This document shows positions 11,354 to 46,672 of a DNA stretch of 64,000 nt, in pieces. The stretch is from Desulfobulbaceae bacterium (GTDB taxonomy: Bacteria; Desulfobacterota; Desulfobulbia; Desulfobulbales; Desulfobulbaceae). The notes beneath the pieces were generated by a model. That model had not been told where the DNA came from. It was given only the letters and a program-made list of their open reading frames with translations, and ran no database searches. The stretch spans positions 5,893 through 69,892 of the forward strand of contig JAVEQK010000016.1 in assembly GCA_034007705.1 (NCBI GenBank). The letters run 5' to 3'. A program made the translations under genes and the position numbers. Numbering within the stretch: position 1 is the first letter of the stretch; each line of letters starts with the position of its first letter.

Positions 11354-11420
11354 AGGGCGGACGGCGTTTGTCCGCCGGCATAATAGAGAAAAAACCAAGG
11401 ATGCGCAAGGCCCATTATCC

Positions 11421-22559: not shown

Positions 22560-22962
22560 AATGCACTTTCTTCAAATAGGTATTGCGCCGCCATGAGGTG
22601 CGGCAATGAACCACAATGTCGCCGATGCAGTCGGCTTTTCTTTTCCTGTCACAATGTGGGAGGATACAAACGGAGAACAAACCATGCCGGTTTGAACAGA
22701 CCGACATACAGTTAACCATGGATAACCCACCGCGTCAATACCTGCAGCTCCGTGGAATGGCCGTACGACGACGGGCCAAATTGGAAATGCCCGAGGATTC
22801 AGAGCATGTGCCAGGAGGGGAAACAGTGCTCTGAACCGCCCACCCCTGCCGCCGTTTCCGCAGTTTCCCCGCGCCGCGTGATTCATTTCCCGCTACGGCA
22901 GCGGCGAGCGGCTTTTCTTTGCTGTCCGGGCTTGACCCGGCCGCGCAGTCAGCCAGCTTCTT

Positions 22963-22978
22963 GTTACCAAACGGTAAC
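22963..22978. promoter_or_regulatory. Perfect palindrome GTTACC-AAAC-GGTAAC (putative enhancer/UAS site 1)
   Basis: Read directly. It lies about 100 bp upstream of the sigma-54 promoter at 23062. Confidence 0.55.
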
Positions 22979-22993
22979 GTCCGGGGCCGGATT

Positions 22994-23009
22994 GTTCCCA
23001 TCAGGTAAC
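22994..23009. promoter_or_regulatory. Palindrome variant GTTCCC-ATCA-GGTAAC (putative UAS site 2)
   Basis: 11/12 half-site positions match site 1. It is offset 31 bp from site 1. Confidence 0.45.
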
Positions 23010-23061
23010 ACCCGCTGTTCTTCAACAGGGCTAATATCTTGTTTTCACAAACATTGCATAC

Positions 23062-23077
23062 TGGCACATGTCTTGCT
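23062..23077 (+). promoter_or_regulatory. Sigma-54 (-24/-12) promoter TGGCAC-ATGTC-TTGCT
   Basis: Exact match to the TGGCAC-N5-TTGCW consensus with correct GG/GC spacing. It faces the kinase operon. Confidence 0.7.
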
Positions 23078-23168: not shown

Positions 23169-23184
23169 GTTACCATACGGTAGC
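23169..23184. promoter_or_regulatory. Palindrome variant GTTACC-ATAC-GGTAGC (site 3), abutting a sigma-70-like promoter
   Basis: 11/12 half-site match. It ends 8 bp before the -35 element at 23192. Confidence 0.45.
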
Positions 23185-23191
23185 AAAAAAA

Positions 23192-23220
23192 TTGTTTCCC
23201 GGGAAAATCGAGGATATAAT
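23192..23220 (+). promoter_or_regulatory. Sigma-70-like promoter TTGTTT-N17-TATAAT
   Basis: Perfect -10 hexamer, 17-nt spacer and a weak -35. It lies about 95 bp upstream of the kinase start. Confidence 0.45.
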
Positions 23221-23314: not shown

Positions 23315-24898
23315 GTGAATCTGACCATCAAGTTCATTGTTGCCATCAGCGCCGTCATCCTGCTGTCCTACGGTTTTCTGCTGTACCAGACCTCGCATCT
23401 GCAGAATGAACTGGTCATGGAACAGGCCCGGCAGCAGACCCGCATCCTCTATAAACAGATCATTCTGACCCGCCAGTGGATATCCGACCACCAGGGATTG
23501 TTCCTGATCAAGACCGAAAAGGTGCTGGAAAACCCCTACCTGCACGAGGCCTCCATTAAAGCCGATGACGGGACCATTTTCGTCAAGCGCAACCCCGCCA
23601 TGGTGACCAGGGAACTGTCCGAATATGCGGCCCGGACAGGATTCTGCTGGTTTCGCATCATCAGTCTGAAACCGGTCAATCCCGCCAACACCCCGGATGA
23701 TTTCGAGCGGGCGGCCATGCTGCGCTTTGAGCAGGGGGTCCGGGAAGTCGATGCCGTCACCAACGGACCGGCCGGGAGGGTTCAACGTTATATCGCCCCG
23801 CTCATCGTCCAGGAGTCCTGTCTCGGATGCCATGCCGAACACGGCTATTCCTTAGGCGACATCCGCGGCGCCCTGAGCATCAGCGTTCCCCTGTCCTGGG
23901 CCGACAGTGTAATCCGGAAAAACAACACCACCATTTTCAAATATGCCTTTTTCTCTGTTTTCGCGGTCGCCCTGGCCCTCATCTATCTGTTCAACAAACT
24001 GGTGGCCCGGCGGATCGACCGGCTGTCCCAGGCCATGGAGAAGTATCCCGAGCAGGGATACAACGTCGCCGACGACAAGCACCTGTACAAGGACGAAATC
24101 GGCCGGCTGATCAAGGGGTTCGGTGATCTCTGCGAACGGCTTGAACGGGCCCAGACCGAACTGGACAAAACGATGCAGCAGGCGTTCTATAACGAAAAAA
24201 TGGCCTCCCTGGGGCAACTGACCGCCGGCATCGCCCATGAAATCAACAATCCGCTCGGAGGGCTGCTCAACTGCGTCAAGACCATGCGGGAGGAGCCCGA
24301 CAACCTGGAACTGCACATGCGCTATCTGCCCCTGCTGGAAAAGGGACTCCGCCGCATCGAGCATATCATGCGCCAGCTCCTGAACTTCGGCAGAAAAGCA
24401 CCGTTGAACATGAGCAAGGTCGATATTGACGACATCGTCCGGGAATGCTGTGAACTGCTCGAATACCGGCTGAAAAACATCTCCCTGTCCCTGGACCTGC
24501 AGCTCCGGGAGCTCTATTGCATCGATGTGGAAGCCCTGCGCCAGATTATCGTCAACACCACCCTCAATGCAATCCAGGCCATGCCCGACGGCGGCAGCCT
24601 GACCGTCGCCACCGGGCGGCGGGGCATCCAGATCTTCATAGAGGTACGCGACACCGGGACGGGCATCGATCCGGCCCTCATGGACAAAATTTTCGATCCC
24701 TTCTTCACCACCAAGGAAGTGGGGGAGGGAACCGGCCTGGGACTGGCGGTCACCTATTCGCTCGTCAAGCAGATGCAAGGCAACATCGCGGTGGAGAGCG
24801 AACCGGGCAGAGGTTCGCTGTTCACGATCACGCTGCCGGCCACCCAGGACTGCGTCATTCTCCCGCACCGGTCCGAACCGGAACCAGACAAGGAATAA
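23315..24898 (+). CDS. Sensor histidine kinase with a periplasmic Tll0287-like (DUF3365) domain carrying a single CXXCH haem-c motif, plus HAMP, HisKA and HATPase domains
   Basis: GTG start. TM1 is IVAISAVILLSYGFLL. The periplasmic domain ends with QESCLGCHAEHGYSLGDIRGALSISVP, followed by TM2. H-box AHEINNPLGG. N, G1 and G2 boxes (DTGTGI, GTGLGLAV). Confidence 0.85.
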   Translation: MNLTIKFIVAISAVILLSYGFLLYQTSHLQNELVMEQARQQTRILYKQIILTRQWISDHQGLFLIKTEKVLENPYLHEASIKADDGTIFVKRNPAMVTRELSEYAARTGFCWFRIISLKPVNPANTPDDFERAAMLRFEQGVREVDAVTNGPAGRVQRYIAPLIVQESCLGCHAEHGYSLGDIRGALSISVPLSWADSVIRKNNTTIFKYAFFSVFAVALALIYLFNKLVARRIDRLSQAMEKYPEQGYNVADDKHLYKDEIGRLIKGFGDLCERLERAQTELDKTMQQAFYNEKMASLGQLTAGIAHEINNPLGGLLNCVKTMREEPDNLELHMRYLPLLEKGLRRIEHIMRQLLNFGRKAPLNMSKVDIDDIVRECCELLEYRLKNISLSLDLQLRELYCIDVEALRQIIVNTTLNAIQAMPDGGSLTVATGRRGIQIFIEVRDTGTGIDPALMDKIFDPFFTTKEVGEGTGLGLAVTYSLVKQMQGNIAVESEPGRGSLFTITLPATQDCVILPHRSEPEPDKE

Positions 24899-24901
24899 CT
24901 C

Positions 24902-26245
24902 ATGGCAAGAATACTGCTTGTTGAAGACGACGATATAATGAGGATTACCATCCAGGACCGGCTGGAAAGGCACGAACTGGATGTCGACGCGGTCGAGAAC
25001 GGCCTGAGGGCGATCGACCGCCTGAAAAAGAACAACTACCATCTGGTCATTTCCGATATCCGCATGCCGGGGATCAGCGGTCTGGAACTGCTGGAGACCG
25101 TCCGCCAGGAGGCCCCCTATACGGACATCATCATGATGACCGCCTACGGCAGCGTCGACGACGCGATCGGGTGCATGACCAAAGGGGCTGCCGACTACAT
25201 CCTCAAACCCTTCAACATGGACGACCTCATCATCCGGGTCAGCAGAATCCTGGAAATGCAGACGATGAAAGCCCGCTTTTCATCCCTGCAGGAGAGCTGC
25301 CGCGAGATGCAGAAGGACATGATCGGCGACAGCCGGGCCATGCAGATGGTCCACGACCTCATCAACCAGGTGGCGCCGACCGATTCCACCATCCTCATCA
25401 CGGGCGAATCGGGAACAGGCAAGGAGCTGGCGGCGGCCGGCATTCACAGGAAAAGCAGAAGGGCCGACAAGCCGTTTGTCCGCATCAACTGCGCCGCCAT
25501 CCCCGAAGGGTTGATGGAATCGGAACTGTTCGGCCACGAAAAAGGGGCCTTTACCGGGGCGCACGCCCGCAAACCCGGCAAATTCGAACTGGCTGACGGC
25601 GGCACCATGCTGCTGGATGAAATCGGCGAACTGCCGCTGCCCCTGCAGGCGAAGCTTCTCAGGGTCCTCCAGGAAAGTTCGTATGAACGGGTCGGCGGCA
25701 CCGGCACGGTCCGCGTCGATGTCCGCATCCTCTGCGCCACCGCCAAGAACCTGGAAGAGGAAGTGCGGCGGGGAAATTTCCGCCAGGACCTGTATTACCG
25801 GCTCAACGTCATTCCCCTTGTCATGCCGCCGCTGCGGGACCGGAAAGAGGACATCCCGGCCCTGACCAACCATTTTCTGCATGAATTCAGCATCAAGCGC
25901 GGGATTGCCCTGGGAATACGCCAGGACGCCATGCAGCTCCTGATCGACTACGCCTATCCCGGCAATGTCCGGGAACTGCGCAATATCATTGAACGGGCCT
26001 CGGTCCTGGCCCCGGAGGCGGTCATTACCGTCAAAGACCTGCCTGCCGATCTGTCTCCTGCCGGAAAATTCGAGGCACCGGAAACCCACTGCACCCTTGC
26101 CGAGGCCCTTGCCCGGGCTGAAAAAGAGCTGGTGCTGAAAGCGCTGGCCAGGGTGCAGGGCCGAAGAGCCGAAGCAGCCGATCTGCTCGGCATCAGCAGA
26201 AAAAACCTGTGGGAAAAAATGAAGCTGCACGGCATTGCGCTCTGA
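24902..26245 (+). CDS. Sigma-54-dependent response regulator (NtrC family enhancer-binding protein)
   Basis: Receiver domain (DIRMPGISG), AAA+ Walker A GESGTGKE, ESELFGHEKGAFTGA (GAFTGA loop) and a C-terminal Fis-type HTH (AADLLGISRKNLWEKMK). Confidence 0.9.
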   Translation: MARILLVEDDDIMRITIQDRLERHELDVDAVENGLRAIDRLKKNNYHLVISDIRMPGISGLELLETVRQEAPYTDIIMMTAYGSVDDAIGCMTKGAADYILKPFNMDDLIIRVSRILEMQTMKARFSSLQESCREMQKDMIGDSRAMQMVHDLINQVAPTDSTILITGESGTGKELAAAGIHRKSRRADKPFVRINCAAIPEGLMESELFGHEKGAFTGAHARKPGKFELADGGTMLLDEIGELPLPLQAKLLRVLQESSYERVGGTGTVRVDVRILCATAKNLEEEVRRGNFRQDLYYRLNVIPLVMPPLRDRKEDIPALTNHFLHEFSIKRGIALGIRQDAMQLLIDYAYPGNVRELRNIIERASVLAPEAVITVKDLPADLSPAGKFEAPETHCTLAEALARAEKELVLKALARVQGRRAEAADLLGISRKNLWEKMKLHGIAL

Positions 26246-26294
26246 GGCCGCTGCCGGGCATTTATTTTCCAACTTTACATGGGGAGGAGAAATC

Positions 26295-27593
26295 ATGCGC
26301 ATGAAATTGATGGTCCTGGGAATGGCCGCGGCAATCCTCGGGTTTGCCGGCACGGCTGCGGCAGCCGATCCCTGCGTTGACTGCCACAACACGATTTCAC
26401 CCGGTCAGGTCCGGGACTGGCAGGTCAGCAAACATTCCGAAAATGATGTGACCTGCTCCACCTGTCACGGCGACCTCCACACAAAGGCGGAAGACGCCAT
26501 GCTGGCGGAGCTGCCCGATGAAAAAGTGTGTGCCGGATGCCATGAAGAACAGTTCAATCAGTTTGGCCGCGGCAAACACAACTTCGGCTGGACATCCCTG
26601 AATGCGATTCCGGCAACCCACTTCGCCCCTGATGAGCTCATCGAGGGCGGCAGGGGGTGCGGCGGGTGCCATAACATGGGCATCAAGACCGAAGAACAGA
26701 AAAAGGAGCTCCGCGACAAGGGGTACCGCTACCAGAGCAACTCGTGCGACGAGTGCCACACCCGGCACGCCTTTTCCAAGAAAGAAGCCCTGAATCCCAG
26801 GGCCTGCCAGCAGTGCCACATGGGCTACGACCATCCGCAGTGGGAAATGTGGTCCAGCTCCAAGCACGGGGCCCGGTATTACATCCGGAAGGAAGGGGAC
26901 CTGCCGGCTGAGGCGGCCGGCCCGAGCTGCCAGAACTGCCATATGCCGGACGGCGATCATGAAAACCGGACGGCCTGGGGCTTTCTCGGCGTACGGCTGC
27001 CCCTGCCCGAGGACAAGCAGGCCGCGGACGACCGGGTGACCATTCTCAAGGCCCTCGGGGTCCTGAATCCCGAGACCGGCGAGCCCACCCCGATCCTCGA
27101 TGCGGTCAAGGCCGTGGACATGGTCCGGCTGGATCAGGAATCCTGGGAAAAGGAACGAAGCAAGATGATCAAGACCTGCACCGGCTGCCACTCGGAAAAA
27201 TACGCCCGCGAGCAGCTGGCCATGGGCGACGCCATCCTGCAGAAGTCCGACCGGCTGATGGCCGACGCCATTGAAACCGTCGCCGCCCTCTACCGGGAGG
27301 GCATCATTGCAAAACCGGAAGGATACCCCTTCAACTATCCGTTCCTGCTGGCCTTCATGCACACCAACGGCGCCAACTGGAATGAAAAGCTGGACGACCT
27401 GTCCTTTATCGACCAGGTCCTGGTGCAGATGTACATGAAGCACCGTATGCGCGCCTACCAGGCCTTTTTCCACGTCAATCCGGATTACGCCTACTGGTAC
27501 GGCTGGAATGAAATGACCAAGGATCTCGGAGAAATCAAGGAGCTGGCGAGGACCATGCGGGCGACGCACGCACCGCAGGATAAACCCCAATAA
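26295..27593 (+). CDS. Octahaem c-type cytochrome, hydroxylamine oxidoreductase (HAO) family, exported (paralogue 1)
   Basis: Eight CXXCH motifs (CVDCH, CSTCH, CAGCH, CGGCH, CDECH, CQQCH, CQNCH, CTGCH). HAO-type core CHTRHAFS...CQQCHMGYDHPQWEMWSSSKHG and C-terminal NPDYAYWYGW. Sec signal MRMKLMVLGMAAAILGFAGTAAAA. RBS GGAGGAG. The track ORF starts upstream at 26235. Confidence 0.85.
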   Translation: MRMKLMVLGMAAAILGFAGTAAAADPCVDCHNTISPGQVRDWQVSKHSENDVTCSTCHGDLHTKAEDAMLAELPDEKVCAGCHEEQFNQFGRGKHNFGWTSLNAIPATHFAPDELIEGGRGCGGCHNMGIKTEEQKKELRDKGYRYQSNSCDECHTRHAFSKKEALNPRACQQCHMGYDHPQWEMWSSSKHGARYYIRKEGDLPAEAAGPSCQNCHMPDGDHENRTAWGFLGVRLPLPEDKQAADDRVTILKALGVLNPETGEPTPILDAVKAVDMVRLDQESWEKERSKMIKTCTGCHSEKYAREQLAMGDAILQKSDRLMADAIETVAALYREGIIAKPEGYPFNYPFLLAFMHTNGANWNEKLDDLSFIDQVLVQMYMKHRMRAYQAFFHVNPDYAYWYGWNEMTKDLGEIKELARTMRATHAPQDKPQ

Positions 27594-34612: not shown

Positions 34613-35611
34613 ATGAAACCATGCACCGCCGCGGCAGCCCTGGTCCTGGTGAGCATAATCGCCGCAGCCCGCGCCGGGGCGGTTGAGGAGGAGCCGCCCC
34701 GGGGGACCCTCAGCTTCGTCATCGAAAACGACCTGTTTTACGATATCGACCGCCACTACACCAACGGCGTGCGGCTCATCTGGGTTCCGGACCCGCGGAC
34801 AGCAACGCCGGCGTGGGCCATGAAGCTGGCCCGCCTGGCCCCGTGGTTTCCGGAAGAAGGCCTGGTTCGCCACGGCTATGCCCTCGGCCAGAGCATGTTC
34901 ACCCCGGAGGATATCACCATTGTTGACCCGCCCCTCCGGGACCGTCCCTATGCCGGCTGGCTGTACACCACCATCGGCCTGGGGCTGGAAACGGGCCGGC
35001 AACTCGACCAGTTCGCCCTGGCCGTCGGCATGGTGGGCCCGGCTTCCCTGGCCGAGCAGAGCCAGAAAATCGTCCACCGGACAATCAATTCGGACAAGCC
35101 GGAAGGCTGGGACACCCAGCTCAAAAACGAACCGGGGCTCGTCGCGACCTACCAGCGCAGCTGGCGGCAGTTCGCCGCCGCCGCCTTTTTCGGCAACGAG
35201 CTGGACCTCTCCCCCCATGCTGGTATTGTACTGGGCAACGTGTTCACCTATGCCAACGCCGGGTTGACCCTGCGCTACGGCGGACAGCTGCCCAACGACT
35301 ACGGCCCGCCCCGCATTCAGCCCGGCCTGCCCGGCTCGGCGGACTTCTCGCCCCTGGCCGGTTTCGGCTGGTACCTGTTCGCCGGCGTTGACGTGCGGGC
35401 GGTGGCCCGCAACATCTTTCTCGACGGCAGCACCTTCCGCGACAGCCGCAGCGTGGACAGGGAAATCCTGGTCGGCGACCTGCAGTTCGGCATCGTCCTG
35501 GACTGGCCCGTCGTCCGTTTCAGCTACACCCACGTCTTTCGGACCAGCGAGTTCACCACCCAGCAAAACAACGACAATTTCGGCGCCATCAGCCTGTCGG
35601 TCAAATTCTGA
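34613..35611 (+). CDS. LpxR-family (DUF2219) outer-membrane lipid A deacylase-like protein
   Basis: Signal peptide, LSFVIENDLFYDIDRHYTNGVRLIWV, and a beta-barrel-like alternating pattern ending in F. Confidence 0.55.
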   Translation: MKPCTAAAALVLVSIIAAARAGAVEEEPPRGTLSFVIENDLFYDIDRHYTNGVRLIWVPDPRTATPAWAMKLARLAPWFPEEGLVRHGYALGQSMFTPEDITIVDPPLRDRPYAGWLYTTIGLGLETGRQLDQFALAVGMVGPASLAEQSQKIVHRTINSDKPEGWDTQLKNEPGLVATYQRSWRQFAAAAFFGNELDLSPHAGIVLGNVFTYANAGLTLRYGGQLPNDYGPPRIQPGLPGSADFSPLAGFGWYLFAGVDVRAVARNIFLDGSTFRDSRSVDREILVGDLQFGIVLDWPVVRFSYTHVFRTSEFTTQQNNDNFGAISLSVKF

Positions 35612-35625
35612 TCCCCTAATATTTC

Positions 35626-35642
35626 TTGACAACAGGTGTTGT
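35626..35642 (+). promoter_or_regulatory. TTGACA hexamer overlapped by a perfect 14-bp palindrome ACAACAGGTGTTGT
   Basis: Read directly, about 250 bp upstream of the HlyD-RbbA-YhhJ-like operon. The -10 element is uncertain. Confidence 0.3.
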
Positions 35643-35893
35643 TCATTTAAAACCTGAATCAATCATCATCTTTTGAATCAGTTCGCCATTTTATGCGGGA
35701 GGACAGCCAACCTTCCCGCGGAAAAAGTGAGAAGCGCAGGCAGAGGCGGCAAATGCCCGCCCCTGCCCGGGGGGATGCGGACAGAATTATAAATATTCTC
35801 TTCCGGGGCCCTGGCGGATTCCCGCCGCCGGGAAAACCCGGAGGGCTGTGGCGAAAAAGGCGTGGACGCGCCTGAAACCGTGGAAAATCAACG

Positions 35894-36967
35894 ATGAAGA
35901 CAGAAATCGGAAAGTGGCTGCTTCGCGGCCTGTTGGTACTTGTCTTTGGGGCAGCCGCCATTCTTGCCTGGCTCCAGTATGGGACCAGGAACGAGGCCGA
36001 CAGCATCGCCGGCGGCAACGGGCGCATCGAGGCGGTGGAGTTCGACGTCACCGCCAGGCTGCCTGGGCGGATCACGGAAATCACGGTGCGCGAAGGTGAT
36101 TTCGTCACCGCCGGCCAGGTGGCAGCTCGCATGGACACCGCCGCACTGGAGGCCCAACTGCGCCAGGCCGAGGCGCAGCTGCGTGAAGCGGAAAGCGGGG
36201 TCGTCACCGCCCGCAGCCAGGTGGTGCTGAGGGAGGCGGAAAAAACCGCGGCCCTGGCGCTGCTGGCCCAGCGCGAGACGGAACTCGACATCGCCCGCAC
36301 CCGCCTGTCGCGCTCTTCGGTGCTGGCAAAACAAGGGGCCGCCTCCCAGCAGAAAGCAGACGACGACAGGGCCAGCGTCAAAGGGGCTGAAGCCGCCGTC
36401 AGCGCAGTGCATGCCCAGATCGCCGCCGCCGATGCGGCCATCGCCACCGCCCGTGCCCAGGTCACCGGAGCGGAATCGGCGATGGAAGCGGCAAAGGCCG
36501 CCATTGATCGCATCCGCGCCGATATTTCCGACTGCACGCTCATTGCACCACGGGACGGCCGCATCCAGTACCTCGTGGCCCGGGAGGGTGAAGTGGTGGG
36601 CGCAGGCGGCCGGGTACTGAACATGATCGACCTGGCCGATGTATATATGACGTTCTTCCTGCCCACGGCCCAGGCGGGCAGGATTGCCCTGGGCGGCGAG
36701 GTGCGGCTGGTGCTTGACGCCGCGCCCGGGTACGTGATCCCGGCAACAGTGTCCTTTGTCGCCGACGTCGCCCAGTTTACGCCCAAAACCGTGGAAACCG
36801 CGGAAGAAAGAGAAAAACTCATGTTCCGGGTCCGGGCCGCCATTCCGCCCGAACTGCTCAGAAAGCACATCCTGCGGGTCAAGACCGGGCTGCCGGGCAT
36901 GGCCTATGTCCGGCTTGACCCGGCGGTTCCGTGGCCGGCCCACCTGCAGGTGAACGTGCCCCAATGA
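35894..36967 (+). CDS. HlyD-family secretion/adaptor protein (YhiI/YbhG-like)
   Basis: N-terminal TM helix, long Ala-rich coiled coils, and a 4-bp overlap with the next gene. Confidence 0.8.
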
Positions 36968-39732
36968 GCGGATCCGGATCGGCAACAGCGCCGCCGGTCG
37001 TCCGGCTGCGGGAGGTGAGCCAGCGCTACGGCACAGCAAAGGCCCTGGACCGCGTCAGCATGGACCTGCCGGCAGGCTGCATGGTCGGCGTCATCGGTCC
37101 CGACGGGGTGGGCAAGTCCAGCCTTTTTGCACTGATTGCCGGTTCCAGAAAAATCCAGTCCGGCCGGGTCGAGGTGCTGGGAGGCAGCATGGCCGACAAG
37201 CGCCATCGCCTGGGCCTTTATCCGCGGGTGGCCTACATGCCCCAGGGGCTCGGCCGGAATCTCTACCCGACCCTGTCGGTATTCGAAAACATTGATTTTT
37301 TCGCCCGCCTTTTCGGCCATGGCCGGCAGGAGCGTGAACGCCGCATCGGTGAACTGCTGCGGGCCACCGGCCTGGCTCCCTTTGCCGGCCGCCCCGCCGG
37401 CAAGCTCTCCGGCGGCATGAAACAGAAACTGGGCCTCTGCTGCGCCCTGATCCACGATCCCGAACTCCTGATCCTGGACGAACCGACCACCGGCGTCGAT
37501 CCCCTGTCGCGCAGGCAGTTCTGGGAGCTGATCGACCGCATCCGGGCCAGACAGGCCGGAATGAGCGTGCTGGTCGCAACCGCCTACATGGAGGAGGCCG
37601 CGCGTTTCGACTGGCTGGTGGCCATGCATGGCGGACGGCTGCTTGACAGCGGCTCCCCGGAAGAACTTCTGAAACGGACCGGCGCCTCCTCCCTGGAAAA
37701 AGCGTTCATCGCCCTGCTGCCGCAATCGCAGCGCGAGGGCTACCGGCCGGTTGCCATTCCTCCCCGGGAAACGGAGGAAAACGGGGAGGCCGCCATCGAG
37801 GCCCACGACCTCACCATGCGCTTCGGCGATTTCACCGCCGTTGATCACGTCAGCTTCCGCATCGGCCGGGGGGAAATCTTCGGCTTCCTGGGCTCCAACG
37901 GCTGCGGCAAGACCACCACCATGAAAATGCTCACCGGCCTGCTGCAGGGCAGCGGGGGGCAGGCCCTGCTGTTCGGCCGGCCGGTGGATCCCCGCGATAT
38001 CGACACCCGGCGGCGGGTCGGCTACATGACCCAGTCCTTTTCCCTGTACGGCGAGTTGACGGTGCGGCAGAACCTGGTGCTGCATGCCCGCCTGTATTCA
38101 ATACCCGAACAGCGGATCCCCGGACGGGTGCGGGAAATGGCGGAACGCTTCGGCCTCGACGGGGTGATGGATTCCCTGCCCGACTCCCTGCCGCTGGGCC
38201 TCAAACAGCGGCTCTCCCTGGCGGTGGCCATGATCCACGGGCCGGAGATGCTGATTCTCGACGAGCCGACCTCGGGAGTGGACCCGGTGGCCCGCGACGA
38301 ATTCTGGCGAATCATGCTGGACCTGGCGCGGCGGGAGGGGGTGACCATCTTTATTTCCACCCATTTCATGAACGAAGCCGAGCGTTGCGACCGGATCTCG
38401 CTTATGCATGCGGGCCGGGTGCTGGTCAGCGATGCACCGGCGTCCCTGATCAAAAAACGAGGGGTGCAAACCCTGGAGGAAGCCTTTATCAGCTACCTCG
38501 AGGAGGCAGCGAAGGAAGGTGAAGCGGAACGTGCGGAAGCGGCCGGGGAAGAGGCCCCTGTTCCCGCGCCGCCGCAAACGCAGGTCCCGACCCGGAAGCG
38601 GCGTTTTTTCAGCCTGCGCCGCCTGTCCAGCTATGCCCGGCGCGAGTCGATGGAACTGGGCCGCGACCCCCTTCGCCTGAGCCTGGCCCTGCTGGGCTGC
38701 GCCATCCTGATGTTCGTCATGGGCTACGGCATCAGCCTGGACGTGGAGGACCTTGCCTTTGCCGTACTCGACCGGGACCGGACCGGTCTCAGCCGCGACT
38801 ACACCCTCAATCTCTCCGGATCGCGCTATTTCAGCGAGCGCCCCCCCATCCGCGACTACGCCGACCTGGACCGGCGGATGCGCGCCGGCGAGATCAGCCT
38901 GGCCCTTGAACTGCCGCCCGGATTCGCCCGGGACATCGACCGGGGCGCCCCGGTCAGCGTGGGCGCGTGGATCGACGGCGCCATGCCCACCCGGGCCGAA
39001 ACGGTGCGGGGCTATGTCCAGGGAATGCACAATCACTGGCTGACCACCCGGGTGCGGCAGGAGCGGGGCACCGGGGCGGCCGGCGGCCCGGTCACCATCG
39101 AAACCCGTTTCCGCTACAATCCCGACGTAAAAAGTCTGAACGCCATGGTCCCGGCGGTGATTCCGCTCCTGCTGATGATGATTCCGGCCATACTGACCGC
39201 CCTTTCGGTGGTGCGGGAAAAGGAGCTGGGTTCCATCATCAACTTCTACGTCACCCCGGTTACCCGGCTGGAATTCCTGCTGGGCAAGCAGATTCCCTAC
39301 GTGGTCCTGGGGATGATCAGCTTTCTGCTGCTGACGGGGATGGCCGTCTTCCTCTTCGGGGTTGAACTCAAGGGGAGCTTTTCCACCCTGTTTGCGGGAG
39401 CCCTGCTTTACGTGGCCGCCGCCACCGCCCTGGGGCTGGTGATCTCGACCTTCATGCGCAGCCAGATCGCCGCCCTGTTCGGCACGGCCCTGCTGACCAT
39501 CCTGCCCGCGATCCAGTTCTCCGGATTGATCGATCCGGTCTCGTCCCTGGAGGGTTTCGGCGCCGTGATCGGCCGGATCTACCCGACCACCCATTTTCTC
39601 ACCATCGCCAGAGGCACCTTTTCCAAGGCCCTTGGTTTTCAGGATCTTCAGGCCTCGTTCCTCCCCCTGCTCCTCGCCGTGCCCTTCCTGATCGGCCTGG
39701 GGAGTGCGCTGCTCCGGAAACAGGACCGCTGA
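36964..39732 (+). CDS. Fused ABC transporter: two ATPase domains plus an ABC-2 permease (RbbA/YhiH-like)
   Basis: Two Walker A motifs ([18 protein letters not shown]) and two signatures ([16 protein letters not shown]). The C-terminal part is a 6-TM ABC-2 domain. The start is at Met12 of the track ORF (ATGA overlap). Confidence 0.85.
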
Positions 39733-39734
39733 CC

Positions 39735-40856
39735 ATGCGCGCCGCCAACGTCTTCCATTTCGGCATCAAGGAGCTGCGCAGTCTGCTGCGCGACCCGATC
39801 ATGCTGGTCCTGATCGTCTATGCCTTCACCTTCGCCATCTACACCGCCGCCACGGTCATGCCGGAAACCCTGCACAAAGCGGCCATCGCCATTGTCGACG
39901 AGGACCGCTCCCAACTCTCCGCCCGGATCAGGGACGCCTTTTATCCGCCCTATTTCCTGCCGCCGGTCCTGATCAGCCGGGCCGAGATGGATGCCCGGAT
40001 GGACGCCGGCCTGGACACCTTTGCCCTCGACATCCCTCCCAATTTCCAGCGTGACGTTCTGGCCGGACGCAGCCCGGCCGTGCAGCTCAACATCGATGCC
40101 ACCCGGACGAGCCAGGCCTTCACCGGCAGCGGCTACATCCATGCCATCATCAGCAGCGAAACCGCCGCCTTTCTTGAAGGACTCCGCACCAACCCCGTCC
40201 CCGCGGTGGACCTGTCCCTGCGGGTCCGTTTCAACCCGGAGCTGAACAAAAGCTGGTTCGGCGGAGTCATGAAGATCATCGACAACGTCACCATGCTCTC
40301 CATCATCCTCACTGGCGCCGCCCTAATCCGGGAGCGGGAGCACGGAACGGTGGAGCACCTGCTGGTGATGCCCGTGACTCCTTTCGAGATCATGGCCGGC
40401 AAGGTGTGGGCCATGGCCCTGGTGGTCCTGGCGGCCTCGGCCTGCTCCCTGCTCCTGGTCGTCCAGGGTCTGCTGAGGGTGCCCATCGAAGGCTCCGTCC
40501 CCCTGTTCCTGGCCGGCACGGCGATCCACCTCTTCGCCGCCACCTCCCTGGGGATCTTCCTCGGCACCGTGGCCCGATCCATGCCGCAGTTCGGCCTCCT
40601 CCTGATGCTGGTCCTGATGCCCCTGCAGATCCTTTCCGGCGGCACCACGCCCCGTGAGAGCATGCCGGATCTCATCCAACTCGTCATGCTGGCGGCACCC
40701 AACACCCATTTCGTCATGCTCGCCCAGGCCATCCTCTATCGCGGCGCCGGCTTCACCGTGGTCTGGCCGCAGTTCATGAGCCTGGCCCTGATCGGCTCTA
40801 TCCTGTTCATTTTCTCCCTGGCCCGCTTCCGGAAAACCCTGGCAGCCATGGCCTGA
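39735..40856 (+). CDS. ABC-2 type transporter permease (YhhJ-like)
   Basis: N-terminal TM helix, a periplasmic loop and five C-terminal TM helices. 2-bp gap from the upstream gene. Confidence 0.8.
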   Translation: MRAANVFHFGIKELRSLLRDPIMLVLIVYAFTFAIYTAATVMPETLHKAAIAIVDEDRSQLSARIRDAFYPPYFLPPVLISRAEMDARMDAGLDTFALDIPPNFQRDVLAGRSPAVQLNIDATRTSQAFTGSGYIHAIISSETAAFLEGLRTNPVPAVDLSLRVRFNPELNKSWFGGVMKIIDNVTMLSIILTGAALIREREHGTVEHLLVMPVTPFEIMAGKVWAMALVVLAASACSLLLVVQGLLRVPIEGSVPLFLAGTAIHLFAATSLGIFLGTVARSMPQFGLLLMLVLMPLQILSGGTTPRESMPDLIQLVMLAAPNTHFVMLAQAILYRGAGFTVVWPQFMSLALIGSILFIFSLARFRKTLAAMA

Positions 40857-41005
40857 ATCCAGCCCGATGGAGAAGACCGGATCGCAATGGTGCTCATCTT
40901 TTCCAGGTTCAGGCCCAGGGGCCGGACACGGTGATCGAGCCGGCGACCGGCTGCATGCGTCCGGCGCGGACAGCATGCAGGATGACGCTGGCGGGACACC
41001 CTCAT

Positions 41006-41021
41006 GATACCGTACGGTAAC
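41006..41021. promoter_or_regulatory. Palindrome GATACC-GTAC-GGTAAC (same family as 22963; putative UAS)
   Basis: 11/12 half-site match to GTTACC/GGTAAC. It lies about 190 bp upstream of the nap sigma-54 promoter. Confidence 0.45.
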
Positions 41022-41038
41022 AAACCCCCGGCAATTAT

Positions 41039-41054
41039 ATTACCCATCCGTAAC
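41039..41054. promoter_or_regulatory. Palindrome variant ATTACC-CATC-CGTAAC (putative UAS)
   Basis: 10/12 half-site match. It is offset 33 bp from the previous site. Confidence 0.35.
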
Positions 41055-41090
41055 ATTTCCTGACGGTTGAAAACCCCGGGACAATCCCTT

Positions 41091-41121
41091 GTCGGCGCCC
41101 CCTTTCCGCCGACACTTTTTT
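41091..41121 (+). terminator. Intrinsic terminator-like hairpin (probably ends the upstream ABC operon)
   Basis: GTCGGCG-CCCCCTTTC-CGCCGAC followed by ACTTTTTT. Confidence 0.5.
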
Positions 41122-41193
41122 CCCCGCAAAATATGAAGTGATATCGAACCGTTTCCTTGCTGACGGGGTGCTGACCGGTACCGCATTTGACCC

Positions 41194-41209
41194 TGGCACT
41201 GTTGTTGCT
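41194..41209 (+). promoter_or_regulatory. Sigma-54 (-24/-12) promoter TGGCAC-TGTTG-TTGCT upstream of napF
   Basis: Exact match to TGGCAC-N5-TTGCW, about 80 bp before the napF ATG. Confidence 0.7.
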
Positions 41210-41287
41210 ATACAATAGAACAAAGCTGATCAAACCGATTCACCGAACGGCCGGCAAGTGACCCGGCCCTTCACAGGACGCACCCCG

Positions 41288-41827
41288 ATGAATCTCACTT
41301 CGTACCTGGCCAACAAATGTCTGGCCTTCCTGCTGGACAGCGGCCCCGGCCGTTCCCGGCCGAGGCCGCTGCAGCCCATGCGACCCCCCTGGTCGGCGAA
41401 AAGCGCGGACTTCGCTTCGCTCTGCGACGGCTGCGGCCTGTGCATCATTGCCTGTCCGGAAAAAATCCTGGCCGGAGACGACAAGGGGCGCCCCCGGGTC
41501 GACTTTGCCGCCGGCTCGTGCACCTTCTGCGGCGCCTGCGCCCAAAGCTGCCACACAGGGGCGCTCTCGCCCGAACCGGCAGCCGCACCGTGGGCTGTGA
41601 AGGCCTTCGTTTCGCCCGGCTGCCTGGCCCGCAACAATGTCCTCTGCAGGACCTGCGCCGAGCACTGCAGTGGAGGCGCGATCATTTTTGCCAACACAAC
41701 AACCGCGGTCCCCGCCCCGGTAATCCTGTCCGGCAGATGCACCGGCTGCGGCGCCTGTTTCGCACCCTGCCCGGCCGGGGCCATCGTCATGCGGCCGGGG
41801 ACGCAACCAACTGAGGTGAGCGGATGA
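41288..41827 (+). CDS. napF: Ferredoxin-type protein NapF (4Fe-4S clusters)
   Basis: Cys clusters CDGCGLCIIACP, CTFCGACAQSC, CRTCAEHC and CTGCGACFAPCP. The start is uncertain: ATG 41288, or GTG 41258 as in the track. Confidence 0.75.
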   Translation: MNLTSYLANKCLAFLLDSGPGRSRPRPLQPMRPPWSAKSADFASLCDGCGLCIIACPEKILAGDDKGRPRVDFAAGSCTFCGACAQSCHTGALSPEPAAAPWAVKAFVSPGCLARNNVLCRTCAEHCSGGAIIFANTTTAVPAPVILSGRCTGCGACFAPCPAGAIVMRPGTQPTEVSG

Positions 41828-42054
41828 ACATATCCGGCATCGTTGTCCACGCCCGGCCCGGCGATTCAGCCGGCCTGGCCGATACATTGCAGCGGATGCC
41901 CGGCGTTGATGTGCACACGGTCACCGATGACGGCCGGATCGTCATCACCGTGGAAGATACGCCGGAAAACGAACCGCCCGAAACCCTGATGAACGTCCAG
42001 AATCTGCCCGGCGTGCTGAGCGCCGCCATGGTCTACAACTACTGCGACGAGTGA
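41824..42054 (+). CDS. napD: NapD chaperone
   Basis: 76 aa. [13 protein letters not shown]... is typical of NapD. ATGA overlap with napF, directly upstream of napA. Confidence 0.8.
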
Positions 42055-42085
42055 TCGATACCCAACCGAGGAAAGGAGGGAAGCA

Positions 42086-44581
42086 ATGAAACTGAACAGG
42101 CGCGAGTTTATCAAGGCCAATGCCGCCGCAGCCGCCGCCGCGGTCGTCGGCGCCCACCTTCCGGCCGCCCAGGCATACGCAAAGGGACAGGACTCAATCC
42201 GCTGGGACAAGGCCCCCTGCCGCTTCTGCGGCGTCGGCTGCAGCGTCCTGGTCGGCACCAGGGACGGCCGGGTGGTCGCCACCCAGGGCGACCCGGATGC
42301 TCCGGTGAACAGGGGCCTGAACTGCATCAAGGGATACTTCCTGGCCAAGATCATGTACGGCAAGGACCGGGTCACCACCCCCCTGCTGCGCAAAAAAGAC
42401 GGCAAGTATGACAAGAACGGGGAATTCGCCCCGGTCTCCTGGGACGAAGCCTTCACGGTCATGGCGGAGAAATACAAGGAGGCCATCCGCACCGGCGGCC
42501 CCACCACCGTCGGCATGTTCGGCTCCGGCCAGTGGACCGTGTGGGAAGGGTATGCGGCCGCCAAACTGTACAAGGCCGGATTCCGCTCCAACAATATCGA
42601 TCCCAACGCCCGGCACTGCATGGCCTCCGCCGTGGCGGCCTTCATGCGGACCTTCGGCATCGACGAGCCCATGGGCTGCTACGACGACCTCGAGCATGCC
42701 GACGCCTTTGTCCTGTGGGGCGCCAACATGGCCGAAGCCCACCCCATCCTCTGGTCGCGCCTGACCAACCGCCGCCTGACGGCAAACCATGTCAAGGTGG
42801 CCGTGCTCTCCACCTTCACCAACCGCTGTTTCGAACTCGCCGACCTGGGCATGATCTTCAAGCCCCACACCGACCTGGTCCTCCTCAACTACATTGCCAA
42901 TCACATCATCCAGGCGGGCAAGGTCAACGAGGAGTTCGTCAGGCAGCACGTCAACTTCCGCATCGGCAACACCGACATCGGCTACGGCCTGCGCCCCGAC
43001 AATCCGCTGGAAGTCCAGGCCAAGAACGCCAAGACGCCCGACGACCAGGGCGGTTCCCGCGAAGCCGCCTTTGAGGAGTACGCCCGGTTCGTTTCCGAAT
43101 ACACCCTGGACAAGGCCCATGAAATGTCCGGCGTCCCCAAAAAGGACCTGGAAGCCCTGGCCGAAATCTACGCGGACCCGAAAACCAAGGTGGTCTCCTA
43201 CTGGACCATGGGGTTCAACCAGCACACCCGCGGCACCTGGGTCAACAACCTGGTGTACAACGTCCACCTGCTGACCGGCAAGATCTCGGAGCCGGGCAAC
43301 GGACCCTTCTCCCTGACCGGCCAGCCGTCGGCCTGCGGCACGGCCCGCGAGGTGGGCACCTTCGCCCACCGGCTGCCGGCCGACATGGTGGTCAACAACA
43401 AGGAGCACCGGGACAGGACGGAAAAAATCTGGCAGGTGCCCGAAGGGACCATCCCGGACAAGCCGGGCTACCATGCCGTGCTGCAGAACCGGATGCTGAA
43501 GGACGGCAAGCTCAACGTCTACTGGGTCATGTGCAACAACAACATGCAGGCCGGACCCAATGTCAACGGGGAAATGTATCCCGGCTACCGGAATCCGAAA
43601 AACTTCATCATCGTCTCCGACCCTTATCCGACGGTCACCGCCATGGCCGCCGACCTCATCCTGCCGACGGCGATGTGGGTGGAAAAGGAAGGCGCCTACG
43701 GCAACGCCGAGCGCCGTACCCAGTTCTTCCGCCAGCAGATCAAGGCCCCGGGTGAGTCGCGGAGCGATCTCTGGCAGCTGGTGGAATTCTCCAAATACTT
43801 CAAGACGGACGAGGTCTGGCCGGCGGAGCTGCTCGACAGCAACCCCGCCTACAGGGGCAAGACCCTCTTTGACGTGCTCTTTGCCAACGACCGGATCAAC
43901 AAATTCCCGTTGACCGACCTGCAGAAGGGCTACGACAACGATGAATCGACCCATTTCGGCTTCTACCTGCAGAAAGGCATCTACGAGGAATATGCCTCGT
44001 TCGGCCGCGGCAAGGCCCATGACCTTGCCCCCTTTGACATGTACCACCAGTCCCGCGGCCTGCGCTGGCCCATCGTGGACGGCAAGGAAACCCTGTGGCG
44101 GTTCCGGGAAGGATACGACCCCTACGTCAAGCAGGGGGAAGGGATCCGCTTCTACGGTAAACCGGACGGCCGGGCCGTCATTTTCGCGCTGCCCTACGAG
44201 CCGCCGGCCGAATCGCCGGACCGGGAATACGACCTGTGGCTGTGCACCGGCCGGATACTGGAGCACTGGCACTCCGGCTCCATGACCACGAGGGTGCCGG
44301 AGTTGTACCGGGCCGTGCCCGATGCAGTGGTCTTCATGCATCCCGATGACGCGAAAAAGCGGGGCCTGCAGCGCGGCCAGATGGCCAGAATCGCCTCCCG
44401 CCGCGGCGAGATAACCTGCCCGGTGGAAACCATGGGCCGCAACAAAATGCCGGAGGGCATGGTGTTCATCCCCTTCTTTGACGCGGGCCGTCTGGTCAAC
44501 AAGCTGACCCTTGACGCCACCTGCCCGATCTCCAAGGAAACGGACTTCAAAAAATGCGCGGTCAGGGTCAGCAAGGCATGA
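42086..44581 (+). CDS. napA: Periplasmic nitrate reductase catalytic subunit NapA (Mo-bisMGD, 4Fe-4S)
   Basis: Tat signal NRREFIK. 4Fe-4S motif [12 protein letters not shown]...C, and NapA-typical length and motifs throughout. Confidence 0.95.
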
Positions 44582-44624
44582 ACACCGGGCAGGCCGAAAC
44601 CGGAACGTAAAATAACGGGATACA

Positions 44625-45398
44625 GTGAACGGACAACACAATACCAGCGGCGGCGGCCAACCAAAGGAACCGGCCCGGCGGCGGTTTCTCGCCGAAACCC
44701 TGAGCGCCGCCGCCGGCGCCCTGGTGCTGGCGGCAAGCCTCGGGCTGTACCAGCGATCCGCCGGGGCCCTGCCGGCTTACGCCTGCCGGCCGCCGGGGGC
44801 TCTGCCCGAGAAGCAGTTCCTCGGCGCCTGTCTGCGCTGCGGCCAGTGCGTCCGCGGCTGCCCCTATGATGTCCTGCACCTGGCCGCACCGGGGGGGGAA
44901 ATCCCCACCGGCACCCCCTATTTCGTTGCCCGGGAAAACCCCTGCCGGATGTGCGAGGACATCCCCTGCCTGAAAGCCTGCCCGTCCGGCGCCCTGAACA
45001 GGAGCCTGGCGACGGTTTACGAGTCAAGGATGGGACTGGCTGTCCTCCTGGATCACGAAAACTGCCTCAACCATCTCGGACTGCGCTGCGATGTCTGCTA
45101 CCGTGCCTGCCCGCTCATTGACCAGGCCATCACCCTCGAGGTCCAGGTCAACCGGCGCAGCGGCGTCCACACCCTGTTCATCCCCACGGTCCATTCCGAC
45201 CACTGCACCGGCTGCGGCATGTGCGAACACGCCTGCGTGCTGGACAACGCAGCCATCAAGGTGCTGCCCCTCAGCCAGGCCCGGGGCGAACTGGGCAAGC
45301 ACTACCGTCTCGGCTGGGAGGAACAGGAAAAGGCCGGCGGCTCCCTTATCCCCGAACAGTTGAAACTTCCTGTCCGGCGGCCGGAGGAACTGCCATGA
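44625..45398 (+). CDS. napG: NapG ferredoxin-type subunit (periplasmic, Tat signal)
   Basis: RRRFL Tat motif. Four Cys clusters ([46 protein letters not shown]). GTG start. Confidence 0.85.
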
Positions 45399-46237
45399 CG
45401 GCCCGCATACCCGGCAGGGAGGCAATCCGGAAGAAAGGCATGGTGCGGGCCGCCAAGTGGCTGGCGCTCCGGCGCATATCGCAGCTGGCCATTCTCCTGC
45501 TGTTCCTGCTCGGGCCGTTGGCCGGCGTCTGGATCGTCAGGGGCAGCTTCTCCGCCAGCATGACCCTTGATGTTCTGCCCCTCACCGATCCGCTGACCGC
45601 CCTGCAGTCCCTGCTGGCCGGCCATACCCTCGGCGCCACCGCCCTGATCGGCGCTCTGATTGTCGCGGTCTTCTACCTGCTCGTCGGCGGGCGGGCCTAC
45701 TGCAGCTGGGCCTGTCCGGTCAACCTGGTGACCGACGCCGCCGCCTGGCTGGGCCGGCGTCTGGATCTGAAAAAAAGCATCGGCTTCAACAATACGGTCC
45801 GCTACTGGCTGCTCGGCTTCATTCTGCTGCTGGCACCCCTGACCGGCGCCGTTGTCTGGGAATGGGTCAACCCGGTGACCATCCTGCAGCGCGGCCTGCT
45901 GTTCGGCATCGGCCTGGGCTGGGCAGTGGTGGCGGCCATCTTCCTCTTTGACCTGCTGGTCGTCCGCCGCGGCTGGTGCGGACACCTGTGCCCGGTCGGC
46001 GCCCTCTACAGCCTGCCGGGGTTCCTGTCTCTCCTGCGGGTCAGGGCCGCCCGCCGCGAGCAGTGCACGGACTGCATGGACTGCTACAGCGTCTGTCCCG
46101 AACCGCAGGTCATCCGCCCGGCCCTCAAGGGAGAGGCCAGCGGCTCCCCGGTCATATTATCCGGCAACTGCACAAACTGCGGGCGATGCATCGACATCTG
46201 CCCCGAGAATGTCTTTCAATTTTCGCAACGATTCTAA
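45395..46237 (+). CDS. napH: NapH membrane quinol-dehydrogenase subunit
   Basis: 4 TM helices, CSWACP and CGHLCP motifs, and two C-terminal 4Fe-4S motifs ([24 protein letters not shown]). ATGA overlap with napG. Confidence 0.85.
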
Positions 46238-46249
46238 GGAGGGAACGGT

Positions 46250-46672
46250 ATGAAGAAAATAGTATGGGCTCTCTTTCTGCTGCTCTGTGCCGCCAGCTTT
46301 GCCGCCGCCGCTTGGGCTTCAACGGATACAGCCGCCAAGGGAAAAGCGGAACTGCCCTCCGGGACAGCGCCGGCTGCGGGGCTGGACTGGAAGGACGAAC
46401 AATCGGCCATTCCCAGGACCTTTGTCCATCAGCCGCCCCTGATCCCCCATGCGATTCATGAATACGAGACAACGACCTCGCGCAACGACTGCCTCGATTG
46501 TCATCGAACCGGTGATGACGCCCAGGCTGCTCCGCCCCACGAAAGCCATTACCTGGACCGGGACGGGAAAGCCGGGGAAACGGTCGCGGCCCAGTGGTAT
46601 TTCTGCACCCAGTGCCATGTGGGACAGGTCGACGCCAAGCCGCTGATCGAGAACACATTTCAGGGCAAATAA
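46250..46672 (+). CDS. napB: NapB dihaem cytochrome c
   Basis: Signal peptide, two CXXCH motifs (CLDCH, CTQCH) and NapB-like PPLIPH. Confidence 0.85.
   Translation: MKKIVWALFLLLCAASFAAAAWASTDTAAKGKAELPSGTAPAAGLDWKDEQSAIPRTFVHQPPLIPHAIHEYETTTSRNDCLDCHRTGDDAQAAPPHESHYLDRDGKAGETVAAQWYFCTQCHVGQVDAKPLIENTFQGK

Follow-up and report, generated by a model that had tools for sequence, protein, structure and literature searches.

Our analysis concerned a 64-kb stretch of DNA from a Desulfobulbaceae metagenome-assembled genome (MAG), hereafter the window, to which all positions refer unless another locus is named. Its focus was the region at 41006-41209, upstream of napF, the first gene of a nitrate reductase (nap) operon. 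Two 16-bp palindromes followed by a sigma-54-type promoter element lie here, a combination that we call the cassette, and a second copy precedes an operon for a sensor histidine kinase, an NtrC-type activator and an octahaem cytochrome c. We put at about 85% the probability that 41006-41209 holds both a sigma-54 promoter for napFDAGHB and, further upstream, its enhancer, to which the activator encoded at 24902 binds, a reading that draws on the arrangement of sites and genes set out below.

Elements upstream of napF and of the kinase operon

The two enhancer sites predicted upstream of napF, neither of them assigned to a strand, are a distal one (UAS-1, 41006-41021; GATACCgtacGGTAAC / GATACCGTACGGTAAC), centred at about -205 from the predicted transcription start, and a proximal one (UAS-2, 41039-41054; ATTACCcatcCGTAAC / ATTACCCATCCGTAAC), which begins 33 bp, or ~3 helical turns, after the start of UAS-1. 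The predicted sigma-54 promoter (TGGCACTGTTGTTGCT / TGGCACtgttgTTGCT) follows on the forward strand at 41194-41209 and is a perfect TGGCAC-N5-TTGCT, with TGGCAC at -24 and TTGCT at -12; the GG and GC of TGGCACtgttgTTGCT are 10 nt apart inside TGGCAC-N5-TTGCW, again a perfect match, and nap transcription is predicted to start at ~41219-41221, ~12 nt past the GC element. All three elements stand where the original prediction had placed them. The operon predicted to be driven by this cassette occupies 41288-46672 on the forward strand and consists of napF (41288-41827), napD (41824-42054), napA (42086-44581), napG (44625-45398), napH (45395-46237) and napB (46250-46672). Its proposed identity as napFDAGHB was borne out, as all six genes match their families: napF, napG and napH exceed their NCBIfam cut-offs, NapA scores 1563 bits against an NCBIfam cut-off of 904, napB exceeds the Pfam NapB cut-off, and napD gives a weak match to the NapD model.

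The arrangement is mirrored, as had been claimed, at 22963-23077. A distal palindrome at 22963 (GTTACCAAACGGTAAC / GTTACCaaacGGTAAC) and a proximal one at 22994 (GTTCCCATCAGGTAAC / GTTCCCatcaGGTAAC), likewise without strand, form an enhancer pair spanning 22963-23009, and the predicted sigma-54 promoter of the kinase-activator-octahaem operon (TGGCACATGTCTTGCT / TGGCACatgtcTTGCT; 23062-23077, forward strand) lies 52 bp past the proximal site. The corresponding gap at nap is 139 bp, a detail absent from the earlier account. A scan of the 64 kb for GTTACCN4GGTAAC with up to two mismatches gave six matches against ~0.7 expected, a number reached in none of 100 shuffles, and all six fall within two intergenic regions, those upstream of nap and of the kinase operon. 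The corresponding scan for TGGCACN5TTGCW, allowing one mismatch, returned just two matches in the window, both perfect, which are the nap and kinase-operon promoters. A chance origin of the resemblance between the two regions is excluded.

The sensor histidine kinase (23315-24898, forward strand) has two transmembrane segments, a periplasmic Tll0287-like/DUF3365 (sCache_haem) domain, HisKA and HATPase. Its periplasmic domain matches PF11845 over residues 34-192 (80 bits versus a cut-off of 24.1; E = 3e-22), contains CLGCH (CXXCH) at residue 169 and is flanked by hydrophobic segments. The next gene (24902-26245, forward strand) encodes an NtrC-type enhancer-binding response regulator with REC, AAA+(sigma-54) and HTH_8 domains, the predicted binder of the palindromes; it exceeds the cut-offs of PF00072, PF00158, PF25601 and PF02954, and D52 in DIRMPG, a Walker A motif (GESGTGKE at 168) and GAFTGA at 215 are present. 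This protein falls below every NCBIfam equivalog cut-off and carries no family name, AtoC being its best match. The third gene (26295-27593, forward strand) encodes an HAO-family octahaem cytochrome c with eight CXXCH motifs, whose best PDB relatives are 6t5e and 4n4j and which is likely a nitrite/hydroxylamine reductase.

A third, single palindrome (GTTACCatacGGTAGC; 23169-23184) is followed 7 bp on by a sigma-70-like TTGTTT-17-TATAAT (23192-23220), and the stretch 23169-23220 (forward strand) probably serves the kinase and activator genes as a basal or autoregulated promoter. Such a single palindrome occurs just 5' of the kinase gene in every co-directional orthologous locus (L165, 8267; L166, 8321; L168, 8324; L169, 8239; L172, 8313; L173, 8289; L174, 8316), and L169 shares the window's layout, with 7 bp and then TTGTAT-17-TATAAT. 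The layout resembles that of glnA-ntrBC and suggests autoregulation through a sigma-54 and a sigma-70 promoter in tandem. L169 also has a second sigma-54 element (TGGCATatcttTTGCT; 11383-11398), the same as its first, directly 5' of the octahaem gene. A second promoter before the window's octahaem gene was considered and rejected: the counterpart at 26256-26271 is a degenerate remnant (GGGCATttattTTCCA) in which the -12 GC is lost, and the gene is therefore taken as co-transcribed with the kinase and activator. On the other side of the kinase-operon cassette, a weak palindrome (GTTAACCATGGATAAC; 22711-22726, two mismatches) lies near the start of a divergent radical-SAM gene (20763-22559, minus strand); its counterpart in L165 has three mismatches.

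The cassette across loci

Over the window and the loci compared with it (1.77 Mb), 17 palindrome pairs were counted; three further loci (L172-L174) added four, giving 21 pairs in ~1.83 Mb, of which 20 are independent when L086 and L165 are counted as one place. Every pair (21/21) is followed on the correct strand by a GG-N10-GC sigma-54 element. The palindromes of a pair are 31-34 bp apart, and 33-34 bp in nearly all cassettes. Among the first 17 pairs, the gap from the proximal site to the sigma-54 element is 48-53 bp in 12, 139-140 bp in the four with a window-type napF and 113 bp in L030; the four additional pairs have gaps of 49-52 bp. A frequency matrix of 37 sites (G34 T31 T34 A36 C37 C30/T7 - N4 - G27/A6 G37 T36 A35 A31 C36) yields the 16-bp consensus GTTACY-N4-RGTAAC, and UAS-1 fits this matrix. 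No palindrome pair was found in the proteobacterial nap loci that served as negative controls (~75 of the 80 loci of a GTDB NapA scan).

Eleven contexts of activator orthologues, 64-90% identical to the activator encoded at 24902, were fetched, and all 11 adjoin nap, nrfHA or octahaem operons. Orthologues stand beside nap in L167, L170, L171, L172 and L173, beside nrfHA in L166, L168 and L172, and beside octahaem genes in L165, L169, L173 and L174. Several gene orders recur: nrfH-nrfA-kinase-activator in L166, L168 and L172, all three with a cassette upstream of nrfH; kinase-activator-octahaem in L165, L169 and L173; napC(M)ADGH divergent from kinase-activator in L167 (cultured strain B35; GCA_046599375.1), L170 and L171; and c3-Fer4_11-NrfD-octahaem upstream of kinase-activator in L173 and L174, with napFDA divergent from this operon in L173. 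Cassettes at 857-957 of L171, 3076-3191 of L173 and 3090-3205 of L174 precede operons for a c3-type cytochrome, a Fer4_11 protein, an NrfD-like protein and a 528-residue HAO-like octahaem cytochrome, which look like a quinol-dehydrogenase/reductase module of the same putative regulon. The cassettes thus point at the adjoining nap, nrfHA, octahaem/quinol-dehydrogenase or kinase operons; the nap cluster of L172, unlike the other contexts, has no detectable cassette. The presence of orthologues beside cassette-bearing nap, nrfHA and octahaem operons supports the earlier proposal that the activator encoded at 24902 may drive both its own operon and napFDAGHB. Molybdenum-cofactor genes (moaA-like and a moaC/mog fusion) also adjoin the kinase-activator pair in L168 (12725-14116), L172 (18556-20844) and L174 (11638-13684), with a MOSC-domain gene in the L168 and L172 sets, and their presence fits a nitrate reductase-centred neighbourhood.

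The closest relatives of the napF upstream region were recovered by a metagenome scan with NapF, which is 87% identical in L085 and 81% in L086; the latter represents the same organism and the same place as L165, whose activator is 88% identical. Both L085 and L086/L165 retain the two palindromes 33 bp apart and an identical sigma-54 16-mer. In an alignment of the window, L085 and L086 (A1), similarity starts exactly at the first palindrome, sequence 5' of which is unalignable; the half-sites are constant and the 4-nt spacers vary (GTAC/ATCC; CATC/GTCC/GTTC), and many substitutions separate the palindromes from the invariant -24/-12 element. The cassette is also found 5' of napFDA in L173 (NapA 86%, activator 74% identical), there with the canonical 52-bp spacing, directly 5' of napD-napA in L030 and L115 (NapA 74-75% identical; no regulator gene in the fetched part), and 5' of a Desulfovibrio-type napC(M)ADGH in L167, L170 and L171, with sigma-54 elements equivalent to that of the window's nap in all six. 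Upstream of nap the palindrome pair is therefore kept in L085, L086/L165, L173, L030, L115, L167, L170 and L171, the conservation among relatives on which the original prediction depended.

The nap operons that carry the cassette are not of one kind. The window NapA is of the proteobacterial NapAB type, with 70-77% identity to gamma-, beta- and alphaproteobacterial NapA, and is 81-84% identical to NapA of Candidatus Electrothrix (GTDB genome scan); with the Desulfovibrio-type NapA encoded beside the activator orthologue in strain B35 (L167, 4687-7080), by contrast, it shares only 36.5% identity. Two evolutionarily distinct nap types with the same cassette therefore imply lateral acquisition followed by regulatory capture, and a nap operon of proteobacterial type seems to have come under the control of a regulon already present in the Desulfobulbaceae. 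Further upstream of the window's nap, a ~6.2-kb block at 34613-40856 (LpxR, an HlyD-like gene and two ABC-2 transporter genes) separates it from MacB-like ABC genes; this block is missing at the corresponding place in L165 (19196-19619), where nap directly follows the ABC ATPase gene.

Enhancer distance and competing explanations

The palindromes upstream of napF lie in the 3' flank of a co-directional ABC-2 transporter operon that ends at 40856, in agreement with the earlier view that the enhancer sits in the tail of the preceding ABC operon. Between them and the promoter is a hairpin on the forward strand (41090-41121) with a GC-rich 8-bp stem (41090-41097/41107-41114), a 9-nt loop and a T6 run (41116-41121). 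It was missed by a simple terminator scan, as its loop exceeds the 8-nt limit, and was instead assessed by folding (-12.7 kcal/mol, z = -4.8); the terminator-like structure noted previously at 41091-41121 is thus real, with a stem that begins at 41090. L086 also folds at this position, though into another stem (-12.4 kcal/mol), and L030, where a long-spacer cassette also lies behind a co-directional gene, carries a separate 8-bp hairpin immediately past the enhancer, whereas no hairpin was found at cassettes in divergent intergenic regions, which have ~50-bp spacing and include napF of L173. The element at 41090-41121 is most likely an intrinsic terminator of the upstream ABC-2 operon, judging from its structure and position, and would insulate nap from read-through. 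The hairpin and T-run explain the greater part of the ~88 bp by which the spacing is longer at the nap promoter, and a terminator in this position would not interfere with the enhancer, which works at the level of DNA. The idea that the hairpin region is an RNA element found no support, as an Rfam search over the whole window gave one tRNA and nothing in 40857-41287.

Between the hairpin and the promoter, the window, L085 and L086 share a constant block at 41137-41148 (AGTGATATCGAA; no strand). The single IHF-like match here (TATCGAACCGTTT at 41142), which the block overlaps, is weak, with two mismatches to the IHF consensus, and an IHF site between enhancer and promoter was set aside as speculative. 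A search of 40857-41287 revealed no credible FNR, CRP/HcpR, NarP or Desulfovibrio-NrfR box. Matches to the FNR box (TTGAT-N4-ATCAA) and to the NarP/NarL 7-2-7 heptamers upstream of napF had three or four mismatches and overlapped the sigma-54 element or a palindrome; the Desulfovibrio NrfR box (GTCAT-N6-ATGAC) had no match with up to three mismatches in the same interval and matched at chance level in the rest of the window.

Several observations weigh against a sigma-54 promoter controlled from these palindromes by the activator encoded at 24902. The nap enhancer is unusually distant from its promoter (139 bp versus ~50 bp), and its two sites are the most degenerate of the set (one and two mismatches). 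The hairpin fold is missing in L085, which retains the T-run, and the close relatives are modestly diverged, so that part of the conservation upstream of napF is shared ancestry. These genomes surely encode other sigma-54 activators, and the motif is assigned to this one by adjacency. Candidatus Electrothrix, whose NapA is the closest among the scanned reference genomes, has no cassette (two loci); in Candidatus Electrothrix sp. YB6 (L005, 3078-5959; CP178758.1) nap adjoins a divergent Crp-family gene, a TTGACttatGTCAA box (TTGAC-N4-GTCAA) and an HAO-like multihaem gene. Judged from these loci, nap regulation has turned over within the Desulfobulbaceae and control by the cassette is not universal in the family. 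Finally, a sigma-70-like promoter (TTGACC at 41187, 18 bp, TACAAT at 41216) overlaps the sigma-54 element and could contribute transcription.

This last observation provides the strongest of the rival explanations, in which nap is transcribed mainly from the sigma-70-type promoter, the match to sigma-54 has a secondary role or none, and the palindromes either act on sigma-70 polymerase or have no effect. The hexamers match at 10 of 12 positions, against an expectation of 0.2 such matches per region, and the single palindrome beside the sigma-70-like promoter 5' of the kinase gene indicates that the regulator may act at sigma-70 promoters too. However, the hexamers decay in L086 (GTGACC, AACAAT), where the -24/-12 element is unchanged, and the coupling of all 21 pairs to GG-N10-GC holds at a fixed distance and mostly without any sigma-70 match. 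The sites, at about -172 and -205, are also too far upstream for classical sigma-70 activation, and we consider this explanation unlikely.

Less probable still is that the palindromes are bound by another factor, either a different sigma-54 activator, of which the Desulfobulbaceae probably encode many, or an unrelated dimeric regulator. The window's nap does lie 15 kb downstream of the regulator gene, as such an explanation would allow, but the cassettes immediately adjoin kinase-regulator orthologues in the 11 contexts, including the divergent regions shared with nap (L167, L170 and L171) and the pair's own operon, and the motif is constant across 64-100% regulator identity, with a conserved helix-turn-helix region. 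A chance likeness or low-level repeat without regulatory meaning, which could appeal to the imperfect nap sites, is effectively refuted by the clustering of the six matches in the window beside both sigma-54 matches and by the recurrence of the cassette in 20 independent places, promoter-coupled each time.

Proposed regulon and its meaning for the Desulfobulbaceae

Under the preferred reading of a sigma-54 promoter and enhancer, each 16-bp palindrome would take one dimer of the NtrC-type regulator. The kinase encoded at 23315, which carries the periplasmic haem-c Cache domain, would phosphorylate the regulator, which would then oligomerise on the paired sites on the same face of the helix, loop to the RNA polymerase-sigma-54 complex at 41194 and open the promoter using ATP. 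We infer both the binding and the dependence on sigma-54 from the nature and context of the elements. The regulon would comprise the regulator's own operon with its HAO-like octahaem cytochrome, together with nap, and in relatives also nrfHA and the octahaem/quinol-dehydrogenase operons. Such a system could co-ordinate Nap with nitrite and N-oxide reductases and so limit the build-up of nitrite.

The napF promoter of Escherichia coli is under FNR and NarP/NarL (and ModE) control. The window operon is of the same type (napFDAGHB...), with a NapA close to those of Proteobacteria, but its promoter is of the sigma-54 rather than the sigma-70 class and lacks FNR and NarP 7-2-7 boxes. The enteric NtrB-NtrC system acts at glnAp2 from two strong sites ~3 helical turns apart, 5' of a -24/-12 promoter, through a REC-AAA+-HTH_8 activator with GAFTGA. 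Site phasing and activator architecture are shared with the present system, as probably is an autoregulated own operon with an extra site at a sigma-70 promoter; the DNA motif differs, as do the sensor (a periplasmic haem domain here, versus PII and nitrogen status) and the regulon (respiratory N-oxide reduction versus nitrogen assimilation).

A nearer parallel is NrfS-NrfR of Desulfovibrio, a sigma-54 two-component system through which nitrite induces nrfHA (PMC5701242; PMC6456213; PMC12285233), and candidate NrfR sites with sigma-54 determinants have been described upstream of Desulfovibrio napCMADGH (PMC5701242). In both systems a histidine kinase and an NtrC-type sigma-54 activator are encoded beside nrfHA (here in L166, L168 and L172, not in the window), paired 16-bp palindromes lie 5' of sigma-54 promoters at both nrf and nap, the motifs share the outer GTnA...TnAC positions, and co-ordination of nitrate and nitrite reduction has been proposed. 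The differences concern the motif (GTTACY-N4-RGTAAC here, GTCAT-N6-ATGAC in Desulfovibrio), the site spacing (33-34 bp versus ~20-22 bp), the lineage, which is Desulfobulbaceae and not Desulfovibrionales, and the targets, which here add the HAO-like octahaem cytochrome, the c3/Fer4_11/NrfD module and a proteobacterial-type napFDAGHB; the comparison of the two systems covered gene layout and sites. The original prediction had also held that sigma-54 control of nap through an enhancer-binding activator departs from the FNR/NarXL/NarQP paradigm. The lack of FNR and NarP boxes agrees with this, but such control has a precedent in Desulfovibrio (PMC5701242): sigma-54 two-component control of nrf, and probably of nap, is already known, and no paradigm is overturned. 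What is new here is the GTTACY-N4-RGTAAC motif, the haem-Cache sensor kinase, the HAO-like octahaem targets and the capture of a proteobacterial-type nap operon. A literature search for the motif or for a Desulfobulbaceae regulon of this kind found no description among the papers searched.

Signalling-fused members of the sCache_haem family (DUF3365/Tll0287-like) show ligand behaviour like that of nitric oxide (NO) sensors (Deshpande et al. 2026 preprint, PMC12889525), and the signal of the present kinase is for this reason probably nitrite or NO. The kinase belongs with this family by its match to PF11845 and retains the defining CXXCH. That study assigns no regulon, whereas here the genomic context links the domain to nap, nrf and octahaem operons, so that a physiological output is attached to these recently described sensor kinases.

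These results provide a precise and testable cis-regulatory code for nitrate and nitrite respiration in Desulfobulbaceae, consisting of the motif, its 33-bp pairing and a ~50-bp offset to the sigma-54 promoter. Among the members of this family are cable bacteria and further sulfur cyclers of sediments, organisms for which pure culture is not possible, and the cassette lets their regulons be read directly from MAGs. The HAO-like octahaem cytochrome and the c3/Fer4_11/NrfD module share a predicted regulon with Nap and NrfA, which supports the nitrite-reduction role proposed for them, and nap in the window clearly illustrates how an operon gained by horizontal transfer comes under a regulator that was already resident. 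More tentatively, and as a possibility that we hold in some doubt, a haem-c Cache kinase that senses NO or nitrite may switch on, through a portable cassette grafted 5' of the horizontally acquired napFDAGHB, the whole nitrate-to-ammonium pathway of the Desulfobulbaceae, relatives of the cable bacteria included. This would cover Nap of either type, NrfHA or the HAO-like octahaem reductase, and the c3/Fer4_11/NrfD quinol module. If true, it would be the first regulon for sCache_haem kinases, and would provide genetic evidence that nitrite is reduced in these organisms by the HAO-like octahaem cytochromes.

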